Positions 3,011 through 32,000 of a stretch of DNA of 32,000 nucleotides are shown in pieces. Under the pieces are notes generated by a model. It ran no database searches. It was not told the origin of the DNA and saw only the letters and a list, made by a program, of their open reading frames with translations. Within the stretch, counting starts at the first letter, position 1, and each line of letters begins with the position of its first letter. Location: positions 10,737 to 42,736 of the forward strand of contig CAYSNH010000004.1 in assembly GCA_964432405.1 (NCBI GenBank). The letters run 5' to 3'. A program made the position numbers and the translations under genes. This DNA comes from an uncultured Candidatus Saccharibacteria bacterium. GTDB lineage: Bacteria > Patescibacteriota > Minisyncoccia > UBA6257 > UBA11618.

Positions 3011-3039
3011 TTGCCAATCTAATAAAAATACTCTATTAT
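3011..3039 (+). promoter_or_regulatory. Putative sigma70-type promoter of rplS (TTGCCA-17-TATTAT) in leaderless-like geometry
   Basis: TTGCCA at 3011-3016, 17-nt spacer, TATTAT at 3034-3039. The ATG at 3049 is 9 nt downstream, with no Shine-Dalgarno in between. Confidence 0.45.
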
Positions 3040-3048
3040 CTAACTACT

Positions 3049-3372
3049 ATGATTGATGAGAAAATTATTGATCAAATAAGGCCCGGCGCTACAGTTCTCG
3101 TACAGGAGATCATTAAAGATGGTGATAAAAAGAGAGCTAGTAACTTCAAGGGTATCGTTTTAGCTAGAAAGCACGGTAAAGAAATCGGAGCTACTTTTAC
3201 CGTTCGCTCAATTATCTCTGGTGAGGGTGTAGAGAAGGTTTATCCTATTAACTCGCCAAGGATTGGTAAAGTGGAAATTATCTCTACTCCTGGTAGAGTA
3301 CGTCGTTCTAAACTATACTTTTTACGTAGCCTGTCAGCTAAGCAGATTAGACAGAAGCTAGGTTCAAAATAA
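3049..3372 (+). CDS. rplS: 50S ribosomal protein L19
   Basis: 107-aa ORF; sequence (RPGATVLVQEIIKDGDKKRASNFKGIVLARKHG...RIGKVEII) matches the bL19 family pattern. Confidence 0.95.
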   Translation: MIDEKIIDQIRPGATVLVQEIIKDGDKKRASNFKGIVLARKHGKEIGATFTVRSIISGEGVEKVYPINSPRIGKVEIISTPGRVRRSKLYFLRSLSAKQIRQKLGSK

Positions 3373-3455
3373 GCGCGAGTGGCGGAACGGTAGACGCGCA
3401 AGCTTGAGGGGCTTGTGGGAGCAATCCCGTGGAGGTTCAAATCCTCTCTCGCGCA
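3373..3455 (+). tRNA. tRNA-Leu (anticodon GAG), class II with long variable arm
   Basis: Hand-folded cloverleaf. Acceptor GCGCGAG/CTCGCGC. Anticodon stem CAAGC/GCTTG with loop TTGAGGG gives GAG. Long variable arm. T-arm GGAGG-TTCAAAT-CCTCT. Discriminator A. No encoded CCA. Confidence 0.9.
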
Positions 3456-3470
3456 CTATATAATATAAAT

Positions 3471-3986
3471 ATGAAACATTTAGACCCTAAAGCCATTTGG
3501 CTCTTCTTTATTGGATTAGTAATTGGTTGGACTATTATGATGTTCTTTTTATCTTTTTGGATTGCTGGTGTTACAATCGCCTCTTTGCAAATAGGAGAGG
3601 ATTATAGTGTGGGCCCCTTTCTTACACTCTTCATGATATTTCTGGTTGGTTTTTATGCTGCTCTTTATTTCTGGGCTAAGCTATCATACCAAAATTATAA
3701 GTATCAATTGAGACCCGAAGGTTTTTATAAAGAATACGGCGTTATTTGGAAGAAGTACGTCACCATTCCTTATAGTCGCATTCAAAACGTTGATATCTAT
3801 AGAGGTTTAATCGTTCGTCTTCTAGGCCTTTCTGATCTTCACATTCAAACCGCTGGCATGAGCTTTACGGGCAAAAGAGGATCTCGTTCAGAAGGTCGTC
3901 TTCCGGGCCTTAGCATCAAAGAAGCTACTATGATTAGAGATGATTTAATCAAACGCTCTCAAAAGTCTAGTGCCCAGGGGCTTTAA
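3471..3986 (+). CDS. Membrane protein with bacterial PH domain (bPH_2 / YdbS-like, DUF304)
   Basis: Two N-terminal TM helices followed by YSRIQNVDIYRGLIVRLLGLSDLHIQTAG, typical of bPH_2. The track start at 3429 lies inside the tRNA-Leu gene, so I trimmed to the ATG at 3471. TATAAT at 3459-3464 sits 6 nt upstream. Confidence 0.7.
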   Translation: MKHLDPKAIWLFFIGLVIGWTIMMFFLSFWIAGVTIASLQIGEDYSVGPFLTLFMIFLVGFYAALYFWAKLSYQNYKYQLRPEGFYKEYGVIWKKYVTIPYSRIQNVDIYRGLIVRLLGLSDLHIQTAGMSFTGKRGSRSEGRLPGLSIKEATMIRDDLIKRSQKSSAQGL

Positions 3987-3992
3987 GTTTAT

Positions 3993-4020
3993 TTGACTTT
4001 TTTAATAAAAGTAGTATAAT
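3993..4020 (+). promoter_or_regulatory. Promoter of small-ORF module A (TTGACT-16-TATAAT)
   Basis: TTGACT at 3993-3998, TATAAT at 4015-4020. Followed by a leader of about 35 nt and AAGGAG at 4054-4059. Confidence 0.5.
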
Positions 4021-4065
4021 ATAGGCAGTTCTTCAGTTTTTGTAACCTGCATAAAGGAGTAATGC

Positions 4066-4320
4066 ATGTTTTGTCAATATTGTGATGTTGATTTGAACGA
4101 AGAAAACTCTTCGGAGGTGACAGTGATGTATAATCTCTGTTCCGAATGTTTTCATAATTCTGACACCTTGATTTATTTTAGTCATGGTGAAACGGCTGAT
4201 CAGTCTCAGTCATCAGGAGAGAATCAAGACTTTCCTCTTTTGAAACCAAGAAAAGAAGAAGCGGTTGAGGAGTTTGATTCTTTTGATGATTGGAATTTGA
4301 AAACACAAAAGCCTCGTTGA
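4066..4320 (+). CDS. Small hypothetical protein with an N-terminal CxxC...CxxC zinc-ribbon-like motif and an acidic tail (module A)
   Basis: 84-aa ORF. CQYC...CSEC pair. AAGGAG 6 nt upstream of the ATG. Own promoter and terminator. Host-like AT-rich composition (21 G+C in line 4141-4200). Confidence 0.5.
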   Translation: MFCQYCDVDLNEENSSEVTVMYNLCSECFHNSDTLIYFSHGETADQSQSSGENQDFPLLKPRKEEAVEEFDSFDDWNLKTQKPR

Positions 4321-4324
4321 GCTT

Positions 4325-4353
4325 GGGCCCACGCTAGTGTGGGCCCTTTTTTT
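4325..4353 (+). terminator. Rho-independent terminator of module A
   Basis: GGGCCCAC / GTGGGCCC 8-bp GC stem with a 6-nt loop, followed by TTTTTTT. Confidence 0.75.
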
Positions 4354-4386
4354 ATTCTTTAAATTAGTTATATTAAATATTACCTT

Positions 4387-5232
4387 ATGTCCAAGATATT
4401 AATTGTTGATAGTGGAGCAACTAAGACCAGTTGGCTTTATTGCTGCGATGGAGAAAAGAAGCTGCTTAACACCAAGGGGCTTAATCCTTATTTTGTTAGC
4501 GTTTCTGACATTACTAAAATCATTCAAGATACCTTTGCTCCTTTAGGAATTAAAGAGATTGATCATTTATTTTTTTATGGAGCCGATTGTGATGGCGAGC
4601 TTTCAAAGCAGAAGATTAGCCAGGGCTTGAAAAACTATTTTGTTGTAAAGGATCTTTATATAGAGGGAGATCTTTTAGGATCTGCTCGGGCTGCGTGTGG
4701 CAATGAATCAGGAGTCTGTTGCATTTTAGGGACCGGGTCTAACGCTTGTATTTATGATGGAAAAGAAATAACACAGTCTATTGGTGGGCTGGGGTATGTT
4801 TTAGGCGACGAGGGTAGTGGCGCTTATCTAGGTCGCCTATTAGTTCGCAAAGTTTTGAATAGACAGTTGAGCAACGATTTATTAAATAAATTTTTCAAAG
4901 AGTATTCGCTAACCCCTGCCCTTATTCTTGACCAAGTTTACTCTCCTAATCGATCCAGTTATTTTCTAGCTAGCCTAACTCACTTTCTTAAGCAAAATAA
5001 CGACCAACCTGAGATTAGGGAGATTATTAAGCAAAGTTTCGATGACTTTATTAAAGCCAACATTCTTCTTTTACCTAAGTACAAACAATATAAGATTAAC
5101 TCTATTGGCTCGATCGGCTTTTATTTCAAGGAGTTCTTTATATTAGCCTGCAAGGATCATGAGTTGGAGGTGGGGCAGGTGATAGATAGGCCGATAGATC
5201 TCTTGTATCAATTTCACATTAATAATAGCTAA
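4387..5232 (+). CDS. BadF/BadG/BcrA/BcrD-type ATPase, N-acetylglucosamine kinase-like sugar kinase
   Basis: 281-aa ORF with the ASKHA-fold motifs DSGATKT, ILGTGSN and GGLGYVLGDEGSGAYLG. Confidence 0.75.
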   Translation: MSKILIVDSGATKTSWLYCCDGEKKLLNTKGLNPYFVSVSDITKIIQDTFAPLGIKEIDHLFFYGADCDGELSKQKISQGLKNYFVVKDLYIEGDLLGSARAACGNESGVCCILGTGSNACIYDGKEITQSIGGLGYVLGDEGSGAYLGRLLVRKVLNRQLSNDLLNKFFKEYSLTPALILDQVYSPNRSSYFLASLTHFLKQNNDQPEIREIIKQSFDDFIKANILLLPKYKQYKINSIGSIGFYFKEFFILACKDHELEVGQVIDRPIDLLYQFHINNS

Positions 5233-5267
5233 AATCTAACATTGACAGAAAATGGCTTTAGGGGGGG

Positions 5268-5295
5268 TTGACTTTTTTTTATATTAATATATAAT
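5268..5295 (+). promoter_or_regulatory. Promoter of GC-rich module B (TTGACT-16-TATAAT)
   Basis: TTGACT at 5268-5273, TATAAT at 5290-5295. The leader contains the hairpin CGTACC(5304-5309)/GGTACG(5318-5323). AAGGAG at 5344-5349. Confidence 0.55.
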
Positions 5296-5357
5296 AGGGC
5301 AATCGTACCTGAGGATGGGTACGGAGTACGTTAACTTTTTTAGAAGGAGTGCATGCT

Positions 5358-5882
5358 ATGCACGAAGGCGAACAAGTTGGTCAAGGCGGAGCAACGGCAA
5401 CTATTGATCGTTCAGTCCCGGCGGAAAAGAGCGGCGACGGTTTCAAGGCTGTCATTGCGGATTTGATCACTACTCCTGACAGAGTGGCGCTGATCATCTC
5501 GACCAGGCTCACCGGCCAGGAAATGCCCGAGGAGACGAGCGAACTTTCCGCTTCGGAAGTCCAGTTGGTCAAGTATCTTGATCAGCTCGTCCAATGTGGC
5601 AACGAAAAGGCGTTGTCGGAGATACAGGTCGTTGTGAAAAGCGAGGCTTTTCTTCATCAAGTGGATGATGCTGTGAAGCTCATCCAAGGCGACCAGGAAA
5701 GCGTCGCAATTGAAGAGAGGGCTCACGAATCCTCCGAGAAGCTGAAGAGCTTCATTATTGAGGGAGCGATGAAGGCCGCAACTCCGGCTGAGAGCTGGGA
5801 AGTTGAATCGACGCAAGAAGCCAAGACGATTACTGCGATAGCAAGATTGCTGCAGCATCTCGTGTCCTTGCGCTGCGCTTGA
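5358..5882 (+). CDS. Orphan acidic 174-aa protein, GC-rich (module B)
   Basis: The ATG at 5358 is 8 nt after AAGGAG. The track GTG at 5349 overlaps the SD, so I rejected it. G-rich first codon positions (GAA/GGC/GTT/GCG) support coding. 34 G+C in line 5401-5460. No signal peptide or TM segment. No family recognised. Confidence 0.55.
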   Translation: MHEGEQVGQGGATATIDRSVPAEKSGDGFKAVIADLITTPDRVALIISTRLTGQEMPEETSELSASEVQLVKYLDQLVQCGNEKALSEIQVVVKSEAFLHQVDDAVKLIQGDQESVAIEERAHESSEKLKSFIIEGAMKAATPAESWEVESTQEAKTITAIARLLQHLVSLRCA

Positions 5883-5922
5883 TCCTTCTGATCGACGACC
5901 TCTTTTTTGAGATGTCGTGCCG

Positions 5923-5954
5923 CCCCCTGTAGCTTAGGCTGCAGGGGGTTTTTT
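5923..5954 (+). terminator. Rho-independent terminator of module B
   Basis: CCCCCTGTAGC / GCTGCAGGGGG 11-bp stem (one G-U pair), loop TTAG, then TTTTTT. Confidence 0.8.
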
Positions 5955-6003
5955 ATTTCAATAAAGCTTTCCAAAAGCAGTTTTTTGTTTTATTATTTTC
6001 AAT

Positions 6004-6549
6004 GTGAAAGAGTATTGTACTGAGGCTATCGTTTTAGATAAAGAAGATCTTGGGGAGCTTGATTCACGAGTCTTTTTTTATACTAAGAGTCTTGGCAAGG
6101 TGGTTGGTAAAGCCACTAGTGCTCGAAAGATAACATCAAAACTCAATGCTCATTTAGAACCCTTAAATCTAGTTCAATTAAGACTGATTCATAAGAATAA
6201 TTTTCAGATTATTGACGCCCTAACTATTGATCGTTTTTCTGCCTTGCGTCATCCAGATCGACTTCCTCAGATTCTCAATCTCTTGTCTTTTATAAAGGAA
6301 ATGACTTTTGAGGAACAAGATGATTTCGAATTATGGAGTGCTTTCAAAGACATTCTCTATTCAGAAAAGATTACTTATCAGTTCTTATTAAGATCATTAG
6401 GCTTTGATCCGCAGTTTGCTCTTTGTGACACTTGTCAGAAAAAACCTCATTATTTTATTGCTCAAGACTTCAGTTTTTGTTGTCAGCAATGTCTAACCGA
6501 AGCAAATAATAATAAAGTATGCTTAAAATCCTATATACCATTGTCTTAA
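6004..6549 (+). CDS. recO: DNA repair protein RecO
   Basis: 181 aa. N-terminal OB-fold-like sequence (AIVLDKEDLGELDSRVFFYTKSLGKVVGKA). C-terminal Cys pairs (CDTC...CCQQC). GTG start. TATTAT at 5991-5996 is 7 nt upstream. Confidence 0.8.
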   Translation: MKEYCTEAIVLDKEDLGELDSRVFFYTKSLGKVVGKATSARKITSKLNAHLEPLNLVQLRLIHKNNFQIIDALTIDRFSALRHPDRLPQILNLLSFIKEMTFEEQDDFELWSAFKDILYSEKITYQFLLRSLGFDPQFALCDTCQKKPHYFIAQDFSFCCQQCLTEANNNKVCLKSYIPLS

Positions 6550-8189
6550 TAGTTATTTTAGCCGGTTTGGCCTATTTCGGCTTTTACTGGTTCACTCATG
6601 ATAATAGTGGGTTGGTTTTGGAGTTTAATGGTCCAGAATCGGTACCAATTGGTATGCCTTTTGATTTAGAGGTTGGAGTCAACAACAACTCCAGTCAGGT
6701 TTTGAATAATGCTAAACTTCTTCTTTCGGTACCTAAGGGCATAGTTTTTGTTGGTAGGTCGATTGATGAAAATATCATTTCTCGCAAGATTGGTAATGTT
6801 GGCGTGGGTAGTTTAACTAGTCAAAAATTTAAATTATTAATTCTTAAAGGAAAAGAGGATGATATTAAAAATATCACAGCGACCATTGATTATTCGCCAG
6901 AGGATGTCAAAACTCGTTTTCAAAAAAGATCGAGTTGGCAAACACCAATTATGGGAGAGGCTCTTGAGTTAATAGGCGTGCTACCAGAAAAAATTACCAG
7001 CGGCAAAGTGGTTGAGTTGAAGATAGATTATAAGAACAATAGCCCTATTGATTTAGATGATCTTATTTTAAAGATTAAATACCCAGAATCATTCCAATTT
7101 CAAAGAGCTACCTTAAAGCCTGATGAGGGTAATAACGAGTGGCATCTTGGAGGTCTTCACCCTGGCTCATCTAATGACTTCGTTATTATTGGTAAGCTGG
7201 TTGGTCCAGAAAACGGATTTTTTGATTTTAAGGCCACCGTCACAAGTGAGTTAGATGGTCGCAAATATATTATTAGCGAAAAGGTTATCAATACCTCTAT
7301 TAAAGTTGCTCCTATAGATCTAGGCTTTTCAGTTAACAACTCTACCAATCACATCGCCAAAACCGATGAAGAATTAAATTACTCTATCAATTATCGCTAC
7401 CTCACCCGTTCTCAGGGCAATGATCCTGTGGTTAAGGCTAAGTTAAGTGGCAAGATGTTTGATTTTGAATCTCTTAAGATAGGTGATAATGGCCAGTTAG
7501 ATGATCGGACCAATACTATCATCTGGCAATTAGATGACGGGGTTCAGTCTGGTAGTGTTAATTTCTCCATAAAAACTCAACCTAAATATCCTATTAGAAG
7601 AGCTGGTGATCGCAACTTTGTTTTAAAGGTGGACGCTCAGTTTGAAGATAGTTCTCACGCAACTGTTAGCCGCTCTGAAACAAAGGTTGCTGGTCAAATA
7701 GAAGTTGATACCAAGGGCTACTTCCGCGACGCAAAGGGCAAGGTGGTTAATAATGGCTCTCTTCCTCCTCAGGTTGGTAAGCCAACTGAGTTTAGTATTC
7801 ATTGGGATATTACCAACTACGCTACCGATGTTAGCGATGTTAAAGTTACCGCCCGACTTCCTAGTCATGTAGAATTTGTTGGAGTTAAGAGTGAGACGGA
7901 TGGGAGTCTTAGTTTCGACGAAGATTCTCCAGAATTCTTAACTTGGGAGATAGATAAGATTTCTGCTACCAAAGGAGTTATTAGCAAGCCGGTCACAGCT
8001 ATTTTTCAGATAAGAGCCGTACCAACTAAGGAGATGATTGGTAAGCACATGTCATTAATAGGGCCAACTACTATTAGCGCTACCGATAAATTTACCGACT
8101 CTCCATTGAGTGGCGGTGATGATTCTTTAACTACCGAGCTAACTGATGACCCTACTTTAAGTGCTTCGGATGGAATTGTGGTAGAATAA
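6519..8189 (+). CDS. Large N-terminally anchored extracytoplasmic protein, beta-rich repeats (tentatively DUF11/CARDB-like)
   Basis: 556-aa ORF with a single N-terminal TM helix (ILYTIVLIVILAGLAYFGFYWF). Repetitive beta-strand-like segments. No catalytic motif recognised. Overlaps the recO 3' end by 31 nt. Confidence 0.6.
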   Translation: MLKILYTIVLIVILAGLAYFGFYWFTHDNSGLVLEFNGPESVPIGMPFDLEVGVNNNSSQVLNNAKLLLSVPKGIVFVGRSIDENIISRKIGNVGVGSLTSQKFKLLILKGKEDDIKNITATIDYSPEDVKTRFQKRSSWQTPIMGEALELIGVLPEKITSGKVVELKIDYKNNSPIDLDDLILKIKYPESFQFQRATLKPDEGNNEWHLGGLHPGSSNDFVIIGKLVGPENGFFDFKATVTSELDGRKYIISEKVINTSIKVAPIDLGFSVNNSTNHIAKTDEELNYSINYRYLTRSQGNDPVVKAKLSGKMFDFESLKIGDNGQLDDRTNTIIWQLDDGVQSGSVNFSIKTQPKYPIRRAGDRNFVLKVDAQFEDSSHATVSRSETKVAGQIEVDTKGYFRDAKGKVVNNGSLPPQVGKPTEFSIHWDITNYATDVSDVKVTARLPSHVEFVGVKSETDGSLSFDEDSPEFLTWEIDKISATKGVISKPVTAIFQIRAVPTKEMIGKHMSLIGPTTISATDKFTDSPLSGGDDSLTTELTDDPTLSASDGIVVE

Positions 8190-8199
8190 ATAAAATATT

Positions 8200-9474
8200 A
8201 TGGATCTAATGGAGAAAATTGTTAGTTTAGCTAAGCGCCGAGGCTTTATATTTCCCGGTTCAGAGATTTATGGTGGTCTAGCTAACTCATGGGATTATGG
8301 ACCTTTGGGGGTGGAGTTGAAGAATAATATCAAGCAAGAGTGGTGGAAGCGCTTTGTTCAGAGTCGAGATGATGTTATTGGTATCGAGACCGCCCTTATT
8401 ATGAATCCTAAGGTTTGGGAGTCTTCTGGTCATCTCAAAACTTTTTCTGATCCTTTGGCAGATTGTAAGGGGTGTCGGAGGCGTTTTCGAGCTGATCAAT
8501 TAAAAAATAAAAAGAAGTGTCCTGACTGTGGAGGAGAGCTAACCAAAGCTCGCCAATTCAATTTAATGTTTAAGACTTTTATTGGTCCATCTGAGGAGTC
8601 TTCTAATGTTGCTTATTTTCGACCAGAAACCGCTCAAGGAATGTTTGTTAATTTTGAGCAGGTGATTAATAGCACTCGTAAAAGACTGCCTTTTGGTATT
8701 GCTCAGATTGGAAAGGCTTTTCGTAATGAGATTACTCCCGGCAACTTTATCTTTCGTACGCTTGAGTTTGAGCAAATGGAGATAGAATATTTTATTAAAA
8801 AAGAGGAGTGGGAAAAGCAGTTTGAAAAATGGTTGAAGGAGATGAAGCAATGGATCAAGCATCTAGGAATTGCTAATAAAAATATCGAGGTCATTGATAT
8901 TCCCAAGAAAGAGCTAGCCCACTATTCCAAGAGAACTGTCGATATATTTTACAAATTCCCTTTTGGTCATGAAGAATTATATGGTTTAGCTTATCGTTCT
9001 GACTTTGATCTTAAGAATCACAATCAAAGCTATCAAGACCCTAAAACAGGTAAGCAGTTTACCCCTCATATTATCGAGCCAACTTTGGGAGTTGAGCGAA
9101 CCGTATTGGCGGTAATGGTGGAGTCGTATAAGGAGGAAAGTGTAAAAGGAGAGACGCGAGTTGTGATGAACTTTCCTAATTGGCTAGCACCTTATAAAGT
9201 AGCTATATTGCCTTTATCTAAAAAAACTCCATTAACCAAACTAGCTAAAAGCATATATAAAGATCTCCTCCCTCACTTTACTTGCGAATATGATGAAACG
9301 CAGAGTATTGGTAAGCGTTATCGACGTCAGGATGAGATCGGAACCCCTTTCTGCATTACGGTTGATTTCGATAGCCCTAAGAAGAAAGACGTTACTGTTA
9401 GAGATCGTAACACTATGAAACAAAAGCGCGTTAAAATTAATAAATTACAACAATACTTAAATGAAGCCCTTTAG
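8200..9474 (+). CDS. glyQS: Glycine--tRNA ligase (class II, alpha2 homodimeric type)
   Basis: 424 aa. N-terminus KRRGFIFPGSEIYGGLANSWDYGPLGVELKNNI plus FRNEITPGNFIFRTLEFEQMEIEYF are diagnostic of GlyRS. Confidence 0.95.
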   Translation: MDLMEKIVSLAKRRGFIFPGSEIYGGLANSWDYGPLGVELKNNIKQEWWKRFVQSRDDVIGIETALIMNPKVWESSGHLKTFSDPLADCKGCRRRFRADQLKNKKKCPDCGGELTKARQFNLMFKTFIGPSEESSNVAYFRPETAQGMFVNFEQVINSTRKRLPFGIAQIGKAFRNEITPGNFIFRTLEFEQMEIEYFIKKEEWEKQFEKWLKEMKQWIKHLGIANKNIEVIDIPKKELAHYSKRTVDIFYKFPFGHEELYGLAYRSDFDLKNHNQSYQDPKTGKQFTPHIIEPTLGVERTVLAVMVESYKEESVKGETRVVMNFPNWLAPYKVAILPLSKKTPLTKLAKSIYKDLLPHFTCEYDETQSIGKRYRRQDEIGTPFCITVDFDSPKKKDVTVRDRNTMKQKRVKINKLQQYLNEAL

Positions 9475-10735
9475 CAGAAAGGTTCTTAAAAACGGATTAC
9501 GTATTATTACCGTTCCACAAAAAGACAGTTTATCAGCTACCGTTCTAGTTTTAGTTGAGGCAGGTTCTAAATATGAGACCAAGAGAATCAGTGGCCTTTC
9601 TCACTTTCTAGAACACATGTGTTTTAAGGGCACTTCTAATCGTCCCAGCGCTCTTCACATCACTACCGAGCTAGATCAGTTAGGAGCTCAGTATAACGCT
9701 TTTACCGGTCAGGAGTATACTGGTTATTATGCAAAAGTTCGATCGGAAAAATTAACAGATGCGGTTGATATTATTGCCGACCTGTACAGCAATCCGCTCT
9801 TAAATGAGGAGGAGATTGAAAGAGAGAAGGGCGTTGTTATTGAAGAGATTAATATGTACGAAGATCTTCCACCTCGAAAGGCTCCAGAATTATTTGAAGA
9901 GCTTCTTTATGGTGATCAGCCTGCTGGTTGGCCAATTGGTGGACTTAAAGACGTTATTCGTAAATTAAATAGAAAAGATTTGGTTAAATATCGCAGTCAG
10001 CACTATGTCGCTCAAGCCACCTCTATTGTTGTGGTCGGATCCTTTAATGAGAAGAAGCTGATTAAGCAGCTAGAAGAAGCTTTTGCCAATGTTCCTTCTA
10101 ATAAAAAGTTTGGCAAGGTTAAAACCAGAGAATCTCAGAAAAAACCCCAACTGTCTATTCAGTACAAAAAATCAGATCAGACTCATTTAGTTATTGGCTG
10201 TCGGTCTTTTGCTGAAGATGATGAGAGGCGTTTTGCTCTAAGGGTCATGAATGATATCTTGGGTGGTGGTATGAGCTCTCGTCTTTTTCAAAGAGTCAGA
10301 GAAGAGTTAGGTGCGGCTTATTATGTTCGTTCAGGAGCTAGTCTCTACACAGATCATGGTTATTGGGCCGCTGGTGCTGGAGTTGATCATAAAAAACTTA
10401 ATCTAGTTATCAAGGCCATTCTAGAAGAGATGAGGCGTTTAACTAGAGAGCCTGTTTCCAAAGAAGATCTTCAGCGTGCTAAAGATCATTTGAGCGGTAA
10501 CTTGGTTTTGGGATTGGAGTCGTCTGATGATCTAGCGCTTTTTTATGGCATGCAAGAAATATCTAATAGACCTGTTATGACACCCCAGCAAATTTTAAAG
10601 AAAATTATTGATGTTAAGCCAAATGATATTATGAAGGTGGCTAAGCATATATTTACTAATAAAAAATTAAACTTGGCTTTGATTGGACCAACTAGAAGTA
10701 AGGGTACTTTAATTAAAAATTTGCGTTTTGATTAA
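9461..10735 (+). CDS. M16-family zinc peptidase (insulinase-like)
   Basis: 424 aa. Inverted zinc motif HFLEHMCFKGT (HxxEH). Overlaps the glyQS stop by 14 nt. Confidence 0.85.
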   Translation: MKPFSRKVLKNGLRIITVPQKDSLSATVLVLVEAGSKYETKRISGLSHFLEHMCFKGTSNRPSALHITTELDQLGAQYNAFTGQEYTGYYAKVRSEKLTDAVDIIADLYSNPLLNEEEIEREKGVVIEEINMYEDLPPRKAPELFEELLYGDQPAGWPIGGLKDVIRKLNRKDLVKYRSQHYVAQATSIVVVGSFNEKKLIKQLEEAFANVPSNKKFGKVKTRESQKKPQLSIQYKKSDQTHLVIGCRSFAEDDERRFALRVMNDILGGGMSSRLFQRVREELGAAYYVRSGASLYTDHGYWAAGAGVDHKKLNLVIKAILEEMRRLTREPVSKEDLQRAKDHLSGNLVLGLESSDDLALFYGMQEISNRPVMTPQQILKKIIDVKPNDIMKVAKHIFTNKKLNLALIGPTRSKGTLIKNLRFD

Positions 10736-10756
10736 AAACGAGTTTTAATTTATTTA

Positions 10757-11782
10757 ATGGAGAATAAATCTACCAACGAAGTATTCAGCTGGATAGCTCT
10801 ATGGAGAATAGTGGCTGTCGCTGCTTTTGTTTGGGTTATTTTCAGTGCTCTTAATGTTGTTTTGGCGATCTTTGTTGCTTTTGTTATTGCTGCTGGTTTG
10901 GATGCTCCCGTTAGTTATTTGAGTAAGAAAGGCATTCCTAGAATTCTAGGCACTTTAATATTTTTTATCATCGGTTTATCGTTTTTAGCAGGTTTAGTTT
11001 ATACAATCGTTCCCCTTGCTATCTCCGACTTCACTCAATTATTCCTCAATCTTAAGGATTACGCGGGACCGTTTCTTGATAATTTTCAAGCCGGTGAGAC
11101 TTTAGATATTATCAATCAGAGACTCAATGCTTTTTCAGACACCTTAGTTAGTGGCACCATACCTCTAACATCGGTTATCGGTTCACTTTTTGGCAACATC
11201 TTCTTAGCTATTACTGTACTTATGATCTCTTTTTATCTCACCGTTGGGCAAGATGGAATCGAGCGCTTCTTAGTAGCTGTTCTACCTACCGCTTATGAAG
11301 AGTCAGCTATCGATCTTTATTTAAAAACTAGAAAAAAGATTGGTCAGTGGCTGAAGGGTCAGATGCTATTAAGCCTAGTGATAGGTCTCTTAACTTTCAT
11401 CGGTTTATATTTCCTTGATGTTAAATACGCCCTTCTTCTAGCTTTATTAGCCGGCGTCTTTGAATTGATTCCTTTTGTAGGGCCGGTCTTCAGTGGTGGT
11501 ATAGCGGTCTTGATTGGTCTTTCAACCTCCTTCAATCTCGCCCTTTATGTATTAATACTCTTTGTTATTATTCAGCAATTAGAAAACAACTTACTAGTAC
11601 CAATAGTTATGAAATATACTACCAATCTTAACCCAGCTGCTATTCTGATATCTATTTTGATTGGTGGTACCGTCTTTGGCTTTACCGGTCTAGTTCTTGC
11701 CGTTCCTGCCTCAGTGTTAATTCAAGAGGTTATTGAAAAATGGGCTACGGCCAAGAGAAGAAAAAAAGGTTTGGGCCTATAA
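10757..11782 (+). CDS. AI-2E family transporter (PerM/UPF0118 permease)
   Basis: 341 aa, multi-TM. Conserved C-terminal region LAGVFELIPFVGPV...LLVPIVM typical of the family. Confidence 0.85.
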   Translation: MENKSTNEVFSWIALWRIVAVAAFVWVIFSALNVVLAIFVAFVIAAGLDAPVSYLSKKGIPRILGTLIFFIIGLSFLAGLVYTIVPLAISDFTQLFLNLKDYAGPFLDNFQAGETLDIINQRLNAFSDTLVSGTIPLTSVIGSLFGNIFLAITVLMISFYLTVGQDGIERFLVAVLPTAYEESAIDLYLKTRKKIGQWLKGQMLLSLVIGLLTFIGLYFLDVKYALLLALLAGVFELIPFVGPVFSGGIAVLIGLSTSFNLALYVLILFVIIQQLENNLLVPIVMKYTTNLNPAAILISILIGGTVFGFTGLVLAVPASVLIQEVIEKWATAKRRKKGLGL

Positions 11783-11803
11783 AAAAACCCCGCTAAAGCA
11801 GGG
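11781..11803 (-). terminator. Rho-independent terminator oriented for minus-strand module E
   Basis: Minus-strand reading: CCCTGC-TTTA-GCGGGG followed by TTTTTTT. The mismatch seen on the plus strand becomes a G-U pair on the minus strand. The TAG stop of ORF E lies in the loop. The permease stop is immediately adjacent. Confidence 0.6.
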
Positions 11804-12026
11804 TTGTAACTCTATCTTTTCTGATCAACGTCACCCTTCCTGAGGGTGATTCTTCTATAATGATGAATTGATCTAAAGCAAAAGTTTTTTCCTCGTGCCA
11901 TCTCTGAGGTCTTTTGTACCCATAGATGAAGGCGGTGAGAAAGGAACAGAGCAGACGACGATCTCTTGATCGTACCCAGAGGACGATGTGATCTTCGTCT
12001 TGCAGGTTAAGTTTAAGTTGTTGCAT
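11793..12026 (-). CDS. Orphan 77-aa protein, GC-enriched (module E)
   Basis: The ATG at 12026 is 8 nt after AAGGAG (12040-12035, minus strand). The track TTG at 12032 is only 2 nt from the SD. 30 G+C in line 11941-12000. Own promoter and terminator. No family recognised. Confidence 0.5.
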   Translation of the reverse strand: MQQLKLNLQDEDHIVLWVRSRDRRLLCSFLTAFIYGYKRPQRWHEEKTFALDQFIIIEESPSGRVTLIRKDRVTTLL

Positions 12027-12068
12027 TTTCAACTCTCCTTAGTTGTGTGATTTTAAATTCCAGGCCAT

Positions 12069-12097
12069 ATCATATAATAATTTAATAAAATTGTCAA
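12069..12097 (-). promoter_or_regulatory. Promoter of module E (TTGACA-17-TATGAT, minus strand)
   Basis: Reverse complement gives TTGACA (12097-12092), a 17-nt spacer and TATGAT (12074-12069). Leader of about 30 nt to the SD. Confidence 0.5.
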
Positions 12098-12138
12098 TTC
12101 TGGAAAAAAACCAGCAAAAGAACTATAATCCTTATACA

Positions 12139-13515
12139 ATGTCAAAATTTTATATCACCACCTCAATCGCTTATGTTAACGGAGCGCCTCATATAGGTTT
12201 TGCTTTAGAGTCCGTCCAGGCTGATGCTATCGCTCGTTATCATCGTCAACAAGATGACCAAGTCTTCTTTTTAACTGGTACTGATGAACATGGTGCTAAA
12301 ATATCTCGTACAGCCGAGGCATTAAAGATAACACCTGAGGAGCTAACCGATACGAACGCTGCTAAGTTTAAGGCTCTGAAAGAGTTACTAAACCTTTCCT
12401 GGGATGATTTTATTAGAACTAGCGATAAAGAAAAACATTGGCCAAATGTTGTTAATCTTTGGCACAAGTTAGAAGCTAGGGGTGATATTTATAAAAAGGT
12501 ATACAAAGGTCTTTATTGTGTAGGTCACGAAGCTTTTGTAACGGAGAAGGATCTGGTTGATGGGCAGTGTCGAGATCATCAGAGTAAACCAGAGATTATT
12601 GAAGAAGAAAACTACTTCTTCCGTCTCTCTAAGTACGCTGATCAGATTAAAAGTCTGATAGAGAGCGAAGAGTTAAAAATCTATCCTCAGAGCAGAGCTA
12701 ATGAGATTATCAGCTTTATTAATCAAGGCATTGAGGATATTAGCTTTTCCCGACCCCGAAAAGATCTAAGTTGGGGCATTCCCGTTCCTGGTGATGAAAC
12801 GCAGACTATCTATGTTTGGTGTGATGCTCTTTCCAATTATCTTTCTCAGCCTGATCAGTGGCCAGCCGAGCTGCAAATCATTGGAAAAGATATTTTGCGC
12901 TTTCACGCTCTATTTTGGCCTGCCATGTTACTCTCCGCCAAACTACCTTTACCCAAAGCCCTTTTTGTTCACGGTCACATTACGGTTGATAATCAGAAGA
13001 TGTCTAAAAGCTTAGGGAATGTTATCGATCCGGTAGAGTTAGTGAACAGGTATGGTGTTGATGCTGTCCGTTACTACCTCCTACGAGAAATTCCTCCTTT
13101 TAATGATGGGGATTTTAGTTATAAGAAGTTTGAGGAGCGCTATAACGGTGATCTAGCTAATGGCTTAGGTAACTTTGTTTCTCGAGTTTTTGCCTTGCAG
13201 AAAAGATTAGAGGTTTCGGCTGCTGATAAAAGCTCTGATGATGTTGGTGACTTTATCAAACGAGTACGGGAACAGATGGGCTCTAGAATGGAGCAGTATC
13301 GTCTTAACGAGGCCCTAGAAACTCTCTGGGAGTTGATTAGTCGCGGTGATAAGTATATAAATGAAAAAAAGCCTTGGGAGACGGGTGATAAGAATGCGGT
13401 AGCTAATGCTCGGGAGTTGGTTGATCAGGTTGCAGAATTATTAAAGCCCTTCCTTCCAGAAACAGCAGAAAAAATAATTAAAGGAGAGCCAGGAACTTTA
13501 TTTCCTCGGTTGTAA
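12139..13515 (+). CDS. metG: Methionine--tRNA ligase (short form, no C-terminal tRNA-binding extension)
   Basis: HIGH-type motif (APHIGFALE) and KMSKS (KMSKSLGN). True start is the ATG at 12139 (MSKFYITTSIAYVNG). The 32-codon TTG extension in the track covers the divergent promoter region. TATAAT at 12124-12129 is 9 nt upstream. Confidence 0.95.
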   Translation: MSKFYITTSIAYVNGAPHIGFALESVQADAIARYHRQQDDQVFFLTGTDEHGAKISRTAEALKITPEELTDTNAAKFKALKELLNLSWDDFIRTSDKEKHWPNVVNLWHKLEARGDIYKKVYKGLYCVGHEAFVTEKDLVDGQCRDHQSKPEIIEEENYFFRLSKYADQIKSLIESEELKIYPQSRANEIISFINQGIEDISFSRPRKDLSWGIPVPGDETQTIYVWCDALSNYLSQPDQWPAELQIIGKDILRFHALFWPAMLLSAKLPLPKALFVHGHITVDNQKMSKSLGNVIDPVELVNRYGVDAVRYYLLREIPPFNDGDFSYKKFEERYNGDLANGLGNFVSRVFALQKRLEVSAADKSSDDVGDFIKRVREQMGSRMEQYRLNEALETLWELISRGDKYINEKKPWETGDKNAVANARELVDQVAELLKPFLPETAEKIIKGEPGTLFPRL

Positions 13516-13521
13516 CAGATT

Positions 13522-20321: not shown

Positions 20322-20323
20322 TG

Positions 20324-20559: not shown

Positions 20560-20566
20560 CAGTCAA

Positions 20567-20602: not shown

Positions 20603-20614
20603 ATTTTTAATTGG

Positions 20615-20697
20615 CGGAGGGTATAGGATTCGAACCTATAAGGGATTGCTCCCGCCGGTTTTCAAGACCGGTGCATTAGCCGTTCTGCCAACCCTCC
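20615..20697 (-). tRNA. tRNA-Ser (anticodon TGA), long variable arm; genomic CCA follows (to 20612)
   Basis: Reverse complement begins GGAGGGTTGGCAGAACGG. Anticodon stem CCGGT/ACCGG with loop CTTGAAA. 3' end is ...ACCCTCCG followed by CCA. Confidence 0.85.
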
Positions 20698-20718
20698 AAT
20701 TTCACTATTATACCACTT

Positions 20719-21429: not shown

Positions 21430-21473
21430 ACCTTAACTCTATCCCTACAGGGGAAAATTGTAAATTGAAAATC

Positions 21474-21482
21474 TGTTATAAT
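21474..21482 (+). promoter_or_regulatory. Extended -10 element (TGtTATAAT) for pilM
   Basis: TG at 21474-21475, TATAAT at 21477-21482. The ATG at 21489 is 6 nt downstream with no SD. Confidence 0.4.
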
Positions 21483-21488
21483 TTACTT

Positions 21489-25909: not shown

Positions 25910-25918
25910 TGGTATAAT
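25910..25918 (+). promoter_or_regulatory. Extended -10 element (TGgTATAAT) for pilT
   Basis: TATAAT at 25913-25918, preceded by TGG. The ATG at 25926 is 7 nt downstream with no SD. Confidence 0.4.
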
Positions 25919-25925
25919 TTAAGCA

Positions 25926-26996
25926 ATGAATTACAAGCAGCTACTTGATGACTTGCTTTTAACAACGGCTCGTCAGAGTGCTTCTGATTTGCATATTGGT
26001 GTTGGTCGTCGACCTTCTTTGAGGATTGATGGTGTTTTAGTACCTTTGGAAAAATCTCCCATGGTTACCCCAGAAATTGCTGAGGGCTTGGTATCTGCTC
26101 TTATTTCTCCAGAGCAGAAAAAATCTTTTTTAGAGCGCAAAACTCTAGATTTTTCTTATAGTTTTGAAGATAAAGCTCGGTTTAGGGTGAACATTTTTTT
26201 TCAAAGAGGTTTTATGGCCGCTGCTCTGCGTCTTATTCCAGCTAAGATAAGAACTGTTGAAGAGCTTAATTTACCAGCTATTCTTCATGATTTTACCAAG
26301 CTTTCCCAAGGCTTTGTCTTGGTGGTGGGTCCAGCTGGTCATGGCAAGTCAACTACCTTAGCCGCTCTTATTGATGAGATCAATAGAAATTATTCCAAGC
26401 ATATTATTACCGTTGAAGATCCAATCGAATATATGTTTACTCAAGATCGCTCTATCATCTCTCAAAGAGAGGTGAAGTTGGACACGATAGATTTTCATGA
26501 TGCCTTACGCTCCCTTTTGCGTCAGGATCCAGATGTTTTAATGATTGGTGAGATGAGGGATGCGGAGTCTATTGCTACTGCTATGACCGCTTCAGAAACC
26601 GGGCACGTTGTCTTTTCTACTCTACACACCAACTCAGCTGCTCAGACGGTTGATCGTATTATCGATAGTTTTCCTCCTGAACAACAGGGCCAGATTACCT
26701 CTCAGTTAGCTGCTACCTTAGTGGCAATTGTTTCTCAGCGATTGATTCCTCGTATTGATGGTGGGCGAGTGCCAGCTTCTGAAATTATGATTGTTAACTC
26801 GGCTGTTAGGAACTTGATTAGAGAGAGAAAGTCCTATCAGCTAGATCTAGTTATTGAAACTAGTCTTAAAGAAGGTATGATTACCTTGAATCGTTCTTTA
26901 GCTAATTTGGTTAAGCAGAGGATAATCTCTTTAGATAAAGCATTGTTATATTCAAAAAACACTTCCGAATTAAAGGTTTTAGTTGAAAAAGTATGA
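25926..26996 (+). CDS. pilT: Type IV pilus retraction (twitching) ATPase PilT
   Basis: 356 aa. ASDLHI, Walker A GPAGHGKST, DPDVLMIGEMRD, TGHVVFSTLHTN. Confidence 0.9.
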   Translation: MNYKQLLDDLLLTTARQSASDLHIGVGRRPSLRIDGVLVPLEKSPMVTPEIAEGLVSALISPEQKKSFLERKTLDFSYSFEDKARFRVNIFFQRGFMAAALRLIPAKIRTVEELNLPAILHDFTKLSQGFVLVVGPAGHGKSTTLAALIDEINRNYSKHIITVEDPIEYMFTQDRSIISQREVKLDTIDFHDALRSLLRQDPDVLMIGEMRDAESIATAMTASETGHVVFSTLHTNSAAQTVDRIIDSFPPEQQGQITSQLAATLVAIVSQRLIPRIDGGRVPASEIMIVNSAVRNLIRERKSYQLDLVIETSLKEGMITLNRSLANLVKQRIISLDKALLYSKNTSELKVLVEKV

Positions 26997-29494: not shown

Positions 29495-29540
29495 TAATTA
29501 TGCCCCTCACAGAGAAGAGCTTTTTTGCTATACTTTCTTT

Positions 29541-30059
29541 ATGAACAAGGGCTTTACCTTAATCGAGTCATTAACCGTCATTGCCATCCTGGCTCTAATG
29601 ACCTCTTTCTTGATTTTATATAATAGAACTGGTGAACGACAGATTGTTTTGTTAAGAGAAAAAGCTAATTTAATTAGTACCGTCCTTAAAGCCAAAAATC
29701 TGGCTTTAGGTGGTTTTATTCGGGAGCCTTTAGGAGAGGTTGTTTGTGGTTACGGTGTTCATTTTGAGGATGACAAGTACTTCATCTATCGAGACCTAGC
29801 TGTTGATTGCAATGCTAGTGATATGCGTTATACGGCCGATAACCCTAAAGAGTTATTTGGTGATATAATAGAAATATTGCCAGTTGTCAGCTTGAAGATT
29901 GATGAGGTGTCAGATATTTTATTTGCTCCACCAACACCCGATGTTTTTTTTGATGGTAGTGAGGCCTTGTTAGAAAAAAACATTATTCTTTCTGATATAG
30001 ATAATACAACAGAGGTGGTTATAAATATTAATAATGCGGGACAAATCAGCACACAATAG
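29541..30059 (+). CDS. Minor pilin / pseudopilin with prepilin-type N-terminal cleavage/methylation motif
   Basis: MNKG|FTLIESLTVIAILALM. TGcTATACT (29526-29534) ends 6 nt upstream of the ATG. Confidence 0.75.
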   Translation: MNKGFTLIESLTVIAILALMTSFLILYNRTGERQIVLLREKANLISTVLKAKNLALGGFIREPLGEVVCGYGVHFEDDKYFIYRDLAVDCNASDMRYTADNPKELFGDIIEILPVVSLKIDEVSDILFAPPTPDVFFDGSEALLEKNIILSDIDNTTEVVININNAGQISTQ

Positions 30060-30540
30060 AGGTTATATTCTAATGGAGGCTTTGGTAGCTATGACGATCG
30101 TAGCTATCGGTCTTTTAGGAATTTTTTCGTTGCTTTCTCGTTCTTTGAGTTTGAACCGAGTGGTTTCGGACCGTTACATAGCTGGTTATTTATCTGCTGA
30201 AGGAATCGAGTTAGTAAAGAACAAGATTGATAATAACGTTATTAATCGAAGAGCTTGGAATGCTGGCATTACAAACGGAGATTTTGAGATCGATCCTTAT
30301 GGCAATCTGACTCTCAATTCGATTAGTGGCAGTCAAGCTTCTCTTTTGCGTTTTAATAGTGGAAATGGGCGATATTCCTATGCTGGTGATCAAGTGACTC
30401 GTTTTCGGCGTAGGATTAATATTCAGTTATTAGGCGGGGGTGATGAGTTGAGGGTGACCTCTAAAGTCTCTTGGTTGGGTCGAGGAGATTCTGATTTTGA
30501 GGTCTCTTTAGAAGATAGGTTTTTTAATTATTGGAAATGA
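30034..30540 (+). CDS. Minor pilin (PilV-like)
   Basis: NRG|YILMEALVAMTIVAIGLLG fits the prepilin motif with Glu+5. Overlaps the preceding gene by 26 nt. Confidence 0.7.
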   Translation: MRDKSAHNRGYILMEALVAMTIVAIGLLGIFSLLSRSLSLNRVVSDRYIAGYLSAEGIELVKNKIDNNVINRRAWNAGITNGDFEIDPYGNLTLNSISGSQASLLRFNSGNGRYSYAGDQVTRFRRRINIQLLGGGDELRVTSKVSWLGRGDSDFEVSLEDRFFNYWK

Positions 30541-31025
30541 TGAATAAAAAAGGCTTTACAATGATCGAGTTGTTAGTGGCTATGAGCTTGTTTGTGGTGG
30601 TGATGGGGGTCGCATCCACCGTTTTCATTCAATCTTTACGAACCCAGCGTTCTATCGTAGCTCTGATGGCGGCTAATGATAACGCTAGCTTATCTATTGA
30701 GCAGATGATGAGAGAGATTCGTATTGGCTCTAATTTCACGACTAATATGGAAAAAACAGAACTGAGCTTTGTGAGTCAGCGCAAGGGCAATGTTGTTTAT
30801 CGTTGGAATAAGGATGAGAAGACCATCGAAAGAAATGGAGTGGCTTTAACGAGCAAGAATGTAGCGGTTGAGTATCTTTATTTTGATCTTTTTGGGGCTG
30901 GTCCTAACGACGGCGCTTCTACCAGAGCAGTTATTAGATTAGGAGTTAGTTCTAATGAGGAGCGAGCTACTGACATCATCACCAATATACAAACTACCGT
31001 TAGCTCAAGACAATTAGATGTTTAA
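30537..31025 (+). CDS. Minor pilin (PilW-like)
   Basis: MMNKKG|FTMIELLVAMSLFVVVMG. I chose the ATG at 30537, which gives an ATGA overlap with the upstream stop, over the track TTG at 30531. Confidence 0.7.
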   Translation: MMNKKGFTMIELLVAMSLFVVVMGVASTVFIQSLRTQRSIVALMAANDNASLSIEQMMREIRIGSNFTTNMEKTELSFVSQRKGNVVYRWNKDEKTIERNGVALTSKNVAVEYLYFDLFGAGPNDGASTRAVIRLGVSSNEERATDIITNIQTTVSSRQLDV

Positions 31026-31027
31026 AT

Positions 31028-31402
31028 ATGAATAAAAAAGGCCAAGTTATGATATTAACCGTATTGATTATCTCAGGAACTATTCTGGGCGCTACCACTA
31101 TCGCGGGTATTTTAATGCTTAATCAGATTCGTCAGGCCACTAATGTGGGTCACTCCTTGCAAGCCATCTTTGCAGCTGATGCTGGCTTAGAGTGGGAGCT
31201 ATATAATAATTTTGTTGGTAGTTATGATAAGCCTCAGATGAGAAATGCTAATTTTGTTACCGAGGTTATTGGTAGCGATAATAGTATCGAATTTCGTTCA
31301 GTGGGTTGTGCGGGAGCTCCTATCGAAGGTCAGGTTCCAGCCAATATTTGTTCTCGCAAGATCAATCGTTCTCTTCAATTATTCTTTCAAGTGGTCCGTT
31401 AG
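31028..31402 (+). CDS. PilX-N-like pilus-associated protein (uncleaved hydrophobic N-terminus)
   Basis: 124 aa. MNKKGQVMILTVLIISGTILGATTIAG resembles the PilX N-terminal domain. Last gene of the minor-pilin block. Confidence 0.55.
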   Translation: MNKKGQVMILTVLIISGTILGATTIAGILMLNQIRQATNVGHSLQAIFAADAGLEWELYNNFVGSYDKPQMRNANFVTEVIGSDNSIEFRSVGCAGAPIEGQVPANICSRKINRSLQLFFQVVR

Positions 31403-31437
31403 TTGACTGTTTTTATAAAATTCAGTATTTTTAATAA

Positions 31438-31603
31438 TATTAAGCGATTGTTGAATCAATTACTTTTTGCACCTTTGATAGACAGAGCTTAGTTGACTCT
31501 ACATCAACTTGGTTTTTGTGCTGTGTCCGAGACTGATTAGAGTGGCCCCTAAGATGTCTTGGATAGACCCCGTTTCGCATGAGAGAGCGAAGCGGGGTTT
31601 TTT
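31438..31603 (+). ncRNA. Candidate small RNA, or alternatively a long structured 3' UTR of the pilus operon
   Basis: TTGACT (31403-31408)-17-TATTTT (31426-31431) just after the stop codon. About 165 nt with no convincing ORF or SD. Internal stems AGTTGA/TCAACT (31491-31509) and CCGAGAC/GTCTTGG (31527-31562). Ends in a strong terminator. Confidence 0.25.
31568..31603 (+). terminator. Strong rho-independent terminator
   Basis: CCCCGTTTCGC / GCGAAGCGGGG 11-bp stem (one G-U pair), 8-nt loop, then TTTTTT. Confidence 0.8.
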
Positions 31604-31647
31604 ATCCACAGTTCTTTAATAGCTTATTTCAGGTTACAATAAAGCAA

Positions 31648-32000
31648 ATGCCTAAAAAGAAGAATAATAAACAAGCTTTTTGGATTGTTCTAGCTCTAGT
31701 ATTAACCGTCCTTTTATTTGGCGGTTTTTTCTCTAAGGGAGATGTTGCTGTTGAGGCTGAAAGCGGGTGTGAGGAGGGGTATGAGTGTCAGTCTAAAGGA
31801 AGTTGTTCTGGGGATGTGGGTAAGTTTTGCGATGAAGGAGGGATAAAAGGGTATTGTTGTAAGAGTAAAACATGCCAAGGAGAGGGTTGTTGCGGTGATG
31901 ATGCCAAATGGAAAGATGGTAAATGTGTTGGCAATTGTGATAACGGTGATAACGGTGATAACGGTGATAACGGTGATAACGGTGATAACGGTGATAACGG
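31648..32000 (+). CDS. Partial (3'-truncated by window) secreted/anchored Cys-rich protein with (GDN)n repeats
   Basis: My own translation, since this ORF is absent from the track (no stop in window): MPKKKNNKQAFWIVLALVLTVLLFGGFFSKGDVAVEAESGCEEGYECQSKGSCSGDVGKFCDEGGIKGYCCKSKTCQGEGCCGDDAKWKDGKCVGNCDNGDNGDN... TACAAT at 31635-31640 is 7 nt upstream of the ATG. Confidence 0.55.
   Translation, partial: MPKKKNNKQAFWIVLALVLTVLLFGGFFSKGDVAVEAESGCEEGYECQSKGSCSGDVGKFCDEGGIKGYCCKSKTCQGEGCCGDDAKWKDGKCVGNCDNGDNGDNGDNGDNGDNGDN
31936..32000 (+). repeat. 9-bp in-frame tandem repeat: GGTGATAAC x6 perfect, plus a leading TGTGATAAC, continuing past the window edge
   Basis: Directly visible; the array is still running at position 32000. 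Confidence 0.95.

Follow-up and report, generated by a model that had tools for sequence, protein, structure and literature searches.

Predicted leaderless starts and Shine–Dalgarno-led orphan cassettes in a marine Patescibacterium

In Bacteroidota, messages carry 5′ leaders, and the genes led by a Shine–Dalgarno (SD) motif include autoregulated ribosomal protein genes. Translation in this phylum is said, in work attributed to Jha et al. (2021) and McNutt et al. (2023), to be SD-independent, with rare strong-SD genes such as rpsU. A second arrangement is GeneMarkS-2 group C (Actinobacteria, Deinococcus-Thermus and some Mycoplasma), in which a dual model combines leaderless first genes with SD motifs for others; the code-11 genomes of this group are almost all high-GC (PMC6028130). 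Leaderless initiation in the Candidate Phyla Radiation (CPR) was not described in the literature searched, and it has apparently not been noted before in this lineage, whereas SD loss has. Here we analyse the translation-start signals of a 32-kb stretch (32,000 nt) of contig CAYSNH010000004.1, hereafter the window, meaning the whole stretch that was analysed; it has ~40% GC and comes from a marine Paceibacteria-type Patescibacterium (CPR). Our overall reading, to which we give a probability of about 60%, is that operon-first genes would be expressed as leaderless messages, that internal genes would be translated free of SD motifs, and that a few accessory cassettes would be translated by the SD route through a retained anti-SD.

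The window resembles group C in having a TANNNT −10 box ~10 nt from operon-first starts and a second gene class with SD motifs. It differs in being low-GC (40%) with standard stops, in the absence of SDs from its internal genes and in the restriction of SDs to a few orphan single-gene cassettes. With Bacteroidota it shares a genome-wide SD paucity and very few strong-SD genes; here, however, core genes seem to lack leaders, and it is orphan genes that are SD-led.

Within-organism counts cover 52 kb of one genome, that is, the window and 20 kb of same-organism flanking sequence from metagenome contigs (L001 and L002), a source that likewise supplied several strain variants; many marine metagenomes hold near-identical contigs of the window. 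The nearest genome representative is the Patescibacteria metagenome-assembled genome (MAG) UBA11618, a sister species (metG 91% identical; ~81% DNA identity) whose locus is L008. The next-nearest relatives by metG are Parcubacteria-type MAGs (Harrisonbacteria, Wolfebacteria and Nealsonbacteria) at ≤66% identity. A wider set of relatives comprised 80 Patescibacteria loci (1.3 Mb) chosen around metG. Cassettes are called o1 to o5 in the window, o0 is a sixth in the upstream flank, and o5′ is a third o5-like tandem cassette in a sister strain (L101); L103–105 and L107–109 are sister-species loci with o0 orthologs.

A −10 element was scored as a TATAAT-like hexamer with A2 and T6 fixed and at most one mismatch, 6–9 nt from the start codon. 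An earlier sequence-only reading had listed ten first genes with such hexamers and no SD, and all ten hexamers and start codons lie where it had placed them:

3011–3051, + strand: rplS start; TTGCCA, 17 nt, TATTAT (3034–3039), 9 nt, ATG (3049)
3436–3473, + strand: bPH-domain gene start; TATAAT (3459–3464), 6 nt, ATG (3471)
5968–6006, + strand: recO start; TATTAT (5991–5996), 7 nt, GTG (6004)
12101–12141, + strand: metG start; TATAAT (12124–12129), 9 nt, ATG (12139)
16634–16672, + strand: surface (He_PIG/Big) protein start; TTGACA, 17 nt, TAAAAT (16657–16662), 7 nt, ATG (16670)
18066–18082, − strand: start of the 103-aa gene 17757–18068; TATAAT (18082–18077), 8 nt, ATG (18068)
21474–21491, + strand: pilM start; TGtTATAAT (hexamer 21477–21482), 6 nt, ATG (21489)
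25910–25928, + strand: pilT start; TGgTATAAT (hexamer 25913–25918), 7 nt, ATG (25926)
29526–29543, + strand: first minor-pilin start; TGcTATACT (hexamer 29529–29534), 6 nt, ATG (29541)
31635–31650, + strand: Cys-rich protein start; TACAAT (31635–31640), 7 nt, ATG (31648)

The start-site observation is real and statistically solid. The distance scan placed a hexamer at 6–9 nt in 10 of 14 non-orphan unit-first genes, and each of the other 4-nt spacer bins out to 61 nt held at most two (n = 14). Shuffling the upstream 40 nt (5,000 trials) gave a mean of 1.0 of 14 and a maximum of 5. Eight of the ten starts also have a −35 element (at most two mismatches, 16–18 nt away) or a TGn extension. Leaderless-type architecture is thereby predicted for 10 of the 19 units in the window and for ~15 of 28 non-orphan units in the 52 kb, the flanks repeating the pattern at AhpC, a VTT-domain gene, a 338-aa pilin-like gene and LigA. 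UBA11618 has the identical metG promoter with the same 9-nt spacer. At the surface-protein gene, the start at 16670 held up in the sister species, in which the upstream ATG at 16652 is destroyed and TTGACA-17-TAAAAT-7-ATG is kept.

The same signature extends through the relatives. A start-agnostic scan, from promoter-like sites to the next ATG that opens an open reading frame (ORF), gave 55 cases at a spacer of 6 nt, 25 at 7, 19 at 8 and 16 at 9, and mostly fewer than 10 per position beyond 20. SD-like tetramers before genes of at least 80 aa did not exceed background in nearly all of the 80 relatives, and they preceded 5 of 65 metG orthologs. With the same −10 peak and background SD levels in 80 relatives, the leaderless, SD-poor regime belongs to the lineage and not to this organism alone.

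Hexamers of this kind could instead act as a Bacteroidota-type element, AT-rich and distinct from an SD, that binds ribosomes or enhances translation on messages with ordinary leaders. The genome is indeed AT-rich and SD-poor, and AT-rich sequence precedes internal genes too; the hexamer, however, is found at 10 of 14 first genes as against 1 of 17 internal genes, whereas in Bacteroidota-type group B the upstream motif is common to both. A translational motif would not behave in this way, and we therefore read the hexamers as promoters. The −35 and TGn partners, the spacer peak at 6–7 nt (the usual −10-to-transcription start site (TSS) distance) and the genes lying 1–3 nt from tRNA 3′ ends, which show that very short 5′ ends are tolerated, point the same way, and we regard the translational-motif account as clearly unlikely. 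The contrast between first and internal genes, conservation, the relatives' spacer peak and the flanks all argue for promoters.

On the leaderless reading, most operon-first genes would be transcribed from sigma-70-type promoters whose −10 element ends 6–9 nt before an ATG or GTG. A −10 box so placed would set the mRNA 5′ end at the start codon or within ~3 nt of it, and such an mRNA would be initiated as a leaderless message without an SD, both the TSS position and ribosome loading being predictions from this arrangement. Internal genes would follow by overlap or across short AT-rich gaps, presumably through coupling or reinitiation.

Public gene calls start metG at TTG 12043 (490 aa) and the surface protein at ATG 16652 (348–351 aa). 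Homology and the sister-species comparison support the starts at 12139 and 16670 over these calls, and automatic gene calling seems prone to extend leaderless genes too far upstream in this lineage. Three consecutive genes (192, 268 and 428 aa) and LigA open with ATGCCTA(A/G)AA, encoding MPK or MPR (window 31648–32000; L002 10622–15386); the first, second and fourth of these carry leaderless-type promoters. The common N terminus may mark a paralogous family or a favoured leaderless start context.

A second, distinct set of starts is led by SD motifs. As the sequence-only reading had proposed, AAGGAG precedes all five orphan ORFs, at 6, 8, 8, 7 and 6 nt from the starts at 4066, 5358, 12026 (− strand), 19274 and 19709. 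The motif occurs 39 times on the two strands together, and the five cassette copies are the only intergenic ones; the remaining intergenic AGGAG copies of the window are all within tRNA genes. In duplexes with a canonical anti-SD sequence, the five orphans reached −8.3 to −8.8 kcal/mol, whereas 30 of the 31 other genes stayed above −6.4 kcal/mol. The one outlier, the minor-pilin gene at 30034, has its motif 15 nt upstream, within the gene before it. A correctly spaced SD was found at none of the 17 internal genes, in line with the earlier reading for the starts that it covered; its statement that these mostly start by stop/start overlap was slightly generous, with overlap at 9 of 17 (TAATG or ATGA in five) and gaps of 2–21 nt at the other 8. 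The cassettes are as follows:

3993–4353, + strand: o1 cassette; −35 TTGACT (3993–3998), −10 TATAAT (4015–4020), leader ~39 nt, SD 4054–4059; coding sequence 4066–4320 (84 aa; CxxC...CxxC, then an acidic tail; isoelectric point (pI) 4.2); terminator 4325–4353
5268–5954, + strand: o2 cassette; −35 TTGACT (5268–5273), −10 TATAAT (5290–5295), leader ~56 nt, SD 5344–5349; coding sequence 5358–5882 (174 aa; GC 0.53; GC at third codon positions (GC3) 0.60; pI 4.7); terminator 5922–5954
11781–12097, − strand: o3 cassette; −35 TTGACA (12097–12092), −10 TATGAT (12074–12069), leader ~36 nt, SD 12040–12035; coding sequence 12026–11793 (77 aa, basic); terminator 11805–11781
19201–19631, + strand: o4 cassette; −35 TTGACT (19201–19206), TGa-TATTAT (19223–19228), leader ~39 nt, SD 19261–19266; TTG start, coding sequence 19274–19579 (101 aa; pI 4.3); terminator 19598–19631
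19642–20157, + strand: o5 cassette; −35 TTTACA (19642–19647), −10 TATAAT (19665–19670), leader ~32 nt, SD 19697–19702; coding sequence 19709–20101 (130 aa; GC3 0.52); terminator 20124–20157
L001 5914–6312 (upstream flank): o0 unit; 132 aa, AAGGAG 7 nt before the ATG, own terminator

The five cassettes of the window follow one plan, and o0 is a unit of the same kind: a near-consensus promoter with a 16–17 nt spacer, a leader of 32–56 nt, AAGGAG, 6–8 nt, a small ORF and a strong intrinsic terminator. Six promoters score 11/12 in the 3000–22000 region, of which the cassettes own four (the others serve the surface-protein gene and a tRNA), and the strongest terminators of that region also belong to cassettes. 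Strong promoter, SD and terminator together would point to high, insulated expression. Leader folding of the cassettes gave no consistent sequestration of the SD, and a search of leaders and modules for known Rfam elements gave no match, even with the E-value threshold relaxed to 1. In our model the cassettes would initiate by the classical SD route; a leadered message cannot take the 5′-end route, which would explain their SDs.

In some orthologs from other species the SD is kept as well. The o3 ortholog of UBA11618 (70% identical, with promoter and SD conserved) has the SD as AAGGAGGAG, and o0 orthologs in L103–105 keep it as TAAGGAGAG. The GGAGG extension, and GGAGGTG-type sites before starts in relatives, match the canonical anti-SD. 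Such conserved, optimally spaced SDs before few genes argue that the anti-SD is retained, and the organism would then keep a usable anti-SD able to pair with AAGGAG.

Among relatives, 5-mers combined with any early start codon came close to the chance estimate and were replaced by 6-mers, for which there was a modest excess (43 SD matches versus 28 for control motifs). In SD-poor bacterial relatives, genes without a homologue in the other loci made up 25 of 36 strong-SD genes, 22 of 129 leaderless-type genes and 35% of the rest (p = 1.7 × 10⁻⁵). These SD-led genes include small orphans, zinc-ribbon or acidic, that resemble o1, and also CPR-untypical enzymes such as an AccA-like protein and an acyltransferase. 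This cross-genome trend is supportive of the generality of the SD–orphan link, short of proof.

What the cassettes encode sets them apart as well. None of the o0–o5 proteins matched Pfam, PHROGs, PADLOC or NCBIfam, and in the 52 kb a Pfam domain is absent from 6 of 6 SD-led genes versus 12 of 51 others (p = 5 × 10⁻⁴). No homologue of o2 was found among 1.84 billion representative proteins. In the protein collections the only relatives of o4 are same-species variants, the sole relative of o5 is the 55%-identical paralog o5′, and o0 has orthologs of 65–70% identity in sister species. Beyond species or genus, no homologue of any orphan appeared in either protein set (5.8 billion and 1.84 billion entries), and JGI metagenome contigs yielded none. 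An AlphaFold model of o5 was mediocre (predicted local distance difference test (pLDDT) score 66) and matched no PDB fold; that of o0 (pLDDT 32) was unusable. Six of the seven orphan proteins are acidic (pI 4.2–5.0). The cassettes would on this evidence be accessory genes for lineage-restricted, mostly acidic, fast-evolving proteins.

One explanation is that the cassettes are recent foreign DNA, either phage morons or genes of SD-using donors, that retained the donor ribosome-binding site in a non-SD host. A distinct composition had been claimed for the modules, which is true of most: GC3 is 0.60 in o2, 0.52 in o5, 0.46 in o5′, 0.43 in o4 and 0.42 in o3, exceeding the host mean (0.344, standard deviation 0.04) by 2–6 standard deviations, whereas o0 (0.37) and o1 (0.30) are host-like. 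As in phage morons, a single ORF with its own promoter and terminator, often of atypical composition, sits between unrelated genes; one cassette is present in some strains and absent from others; and the SD-led genes of SD-poor relatives, which are enriched among non-conserved genes, include the CPR-untypical enzymes. The cassettes differ from morons, however, in lying among housekeeping genes and not in a prophage. Their promoters are the region's best host-type sigma-70 matches, no donor emerged from the protein sets, and PHROGs, GenBank phages and IMG/VR held no phage homologues. No flanking repeats or integrase were seen, only promoter hexamers recurring around the cassettes, and o3 and o0 occupy the same positions in sister species at a synonymous divergence (dS) of ~0.9. 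The domain-less 103-aa gene 17757–18068 (− strand), missing from the otherwise syntenic UBA11618 contig, is leaderless-type; "accessory" is therefore not equal to "SD-led". Some cassettes were probably acquired horizontally, judged by their raised GC3, but as a general account recent foreign origin is doubtful. Where the earlier proposal had been foreign origin or a specialised expression class, a distinct class stands, accessory and possibly foreign in some members; host-type promoters, the lack of a donor and two syntenic cassettes leave foreign origin not shown.

Some orphan ORFs might also not be functional protein genes but small RNAs or decaying or proto-genes, their SD-like hexamers having no translational role. 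Within the species, pooled nonsynonymous-to-synonymous polymorphism counts were 14:5 for orphans versus 18:88 for host genes (p = 2 × 10⁻⁶), a mark of fast evolution driven by o2 (8:1) and o4 (5:0). The joint 13:1 of these two gives the non-functional view some colour, and neither homologues nor confident folds were found. On the other hand, all five intergenic AAGGAG copies lie 6–8 nt from ORFs that fill the space to the terminator, the ORFs are intact in every strain variant, and an open 174-codon frame at 53% GC is improbable by chance (~6 × 10⁻⁴, a rough estimate). The ratio of nonsynonymous to synonymous rates (dN/dS) was 0.22 for o3 versus its ortholog and 0.25 for o5 versus its paralog, compared with 0.03–0.15 for neighbouring host genes; the cassettes are therefore protein-coding but less constrained than host genes. 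No Rfam family speaks for an RNA function. Promoters, leaders and SDs are nearly invariant within the species, with no promoter or leader single-nucleotide polymorphisms (SNPs) at o4. An ORF antisense to o2 (5412–5858, − strand, 148 aa) was considered and rejected as the real gene: it has no promoter, SD or leaderless signal, and its Leu/Arg/Ser-rich make-up is typical antisense composition. Five of nine o2 SNPs fall on o2 codon position 1, the wobble phase of the antisense frame, a bias that is not statistically significant. Both the antisense frame and this SNP pattern could be cited for non-coding orphans, a view that we judge very unlikely overall.

One cassette family also gains or loses a whole unit between strains. 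o1, o2, o4 and o5 were found in all same-species contigs, and the o5′ cassette (139 aa) follows o5 in the sister strain (L101 9918–10470) at a position corresponding to ~20157–20163 of the window, from which it is absent. It comes with a near-identical promoter, leader, AAGGAG and terminator of its own, and a run of 39 identical nt that o5 and o5′ share near the N-terminal end of their coding sequences suggests recombination between the paralogs. The presence of o5′ in some strains only means that whole cassettes are duplicated, lost and possibly recombined; one cassette family would change copy number through duplication or loss of the whole unit. A five-tRNA cluster (Ala-TGC, Ser-CGA, Arg-CCT, Ala-GGC and Ser-TGA; 20163–20697) lies directly downstream of o4 and o5, and the variable cassette array therefore adjoins a tRNA cluster. 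Two independent assemblies are interrupted at cassette borders: of two Logan SRR8062335 contigs, one ends and the other starts inside o1 (4158–4160), and the UBA11618 contig stops just before o4 (19238). These breaks may reflect strain heterogeneity or chance.

Several observations weigh against our overall reading. Four unit-first genes, GT4 at 2967 (− strand), the gene at 4387 (+ strand), HtrA at 19165 (− strand) and ComF at 21429 (− strand), have leaders of ~5–27 nt and no SD; one of them is listed here:

2968–3048, − strand: upstream region of GT4, a unit-first host gene with a leader but no SD; a counter-example to two strict regimes

Within the window the cassettes alone carry a correctly spaced SD, against none of these four leadered host genes; about seven more unit-first genes in the flanks have neither a −10 at 6–9 nt nor an SD, and S2, SecA and GatC in the flanks likewise have leaders without an SD. 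Leadered messages of this organism can thus evidently do without an SD. Host units look leaderless on promoter geometry, and the sample is small, 52 kb of one genome plus relatives' loci picked around metG. In relatives, the SD–orphan link did not differ significantly from a small, imperfect set of control motifs. In the o0 orthologs of L107–109, from one sister species, the leader is retained and the SD is absent. The nonsynonymous bias of o2 and o4 fits diversifying selection but also near-neutral drift of marginal genes. Finally, Tsurumaki et al. (2022, PMC9297842) report the CCUCCU anti-SD motif for just 48% of the 16S genes of Parcubacteria, which agrees with the background-level SD use of the relatives.

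This last report raises the prospect that the organism belongs to a Parcubacteria subgroup without the canonical anti-SD and that AAGGAG has another reader, such as a regulatory protein or RNA or a heterologous ribosome. The lineage is the same, its published CCUCCU loss concerns about half of Parcubacteria, and host genes here are essentially free of SDs. The difference is that a few genes of this organism have perfect, conserved, optimally spaced SDs; motif, spacing and the extension in the o3 ortholog are exactly SD-like, and relatives carry GGAGGTG-type sites before starts. No rRNA genes occur in the window, the 20 kb of same-organism flanks or 100 retrieved loci. We consider this account highly improbable and keep a retained anti-SD as part of the preferred reading.

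The picture of two initiation regimes put forward by the sequence-only reading thus stands for its distinct SD-led class; a clean dichotomy does not, given host genes with leaders but no SD and genes that abut tRNAs. Same-strand tRNA and protein genes lie 0–3 nt apart at rplS/tRNA-Leu, AhpC/tRNA-Val/RluA-like and tRNA-Met/Mur ligase (window 3372–3456; L001 4086–5238 and 7052–7465; L002 17932–19275). The example in the window is this:

3373–3456, + strand: tRNA-Leu(GAG), beginning directly after the rplS stop codon (3372); the 3′ portion of the tRNA gene doubles as the −35 region of the bPH-domain promoter

In the flanks, the ATG of an RluA-like pseudouridine synthase lies 3 nt past the tRNA-Val 3′ end and that of a Mur ligase 1 nt past the tRNA-Met 3′ end, neither having its own promoter; one further ORF overlaps tRNA-Tyr. 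The likeness to mitochondrial tRNA punctuation is that, with gaps of 0–3 nt, the processed message would begin at or beside the AUG. Here, however, the setting is a bacterial chromosome, only some genes are so arranged, and the processing is a prediction. Processing of these tRNAs would make leaderless messages at the abutting genes, and the flank repeats together with the tRNA-abutting genes suggest that messages of this organism normally begin at the start codon. The window otherwise holds housekeeping genes (rplS, recO, a class II aminoacyl-tRNA synthetase, metG, leuS, TatD and HtrA), a DUF4012/GT4 pair, a type IV pilus cluster and six tRNAs.

What is most original here is the link of SDs to orphan cassettes that evolve fast, with six cassettes and the supportive cross-genome trend as its base. 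We also entertain, as an unlikely possibility, a separate translational channel: the core proteome would be made from leaderless or coupled messages free of the anti-SD, and a small regulon of strongly signalled, fast-diversifying small acidic proteins, candidates for host interaction or anti-phage functions, would be made through 30S and the anti-SD, its output being switchable independently through free 30S, initiation factor 3 (IF3) or availability of the 16S tail.

CPR bacteria (Patescibacteria) make up a large share of bacterial diversity; they have reduced ribosomes and are almost uncultured, and their start-site choice is little understood. If true genome-wide, the pattern described here would combine first genes with leaderless starts, internal genes without SDs and a handful of classical SD genes whose products are lineage-specific and evolve fast. 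For annotation, it contradicts the public starts of metG and the surface protein. It would also offer a concrete way to ask whether the anti-SD loss reported for Parcubacteria is real or partial, and the SD may be a simple marker, readable from sequence, by which to find candidate genes for accessory or symbiotic functions in CPR bacteria.

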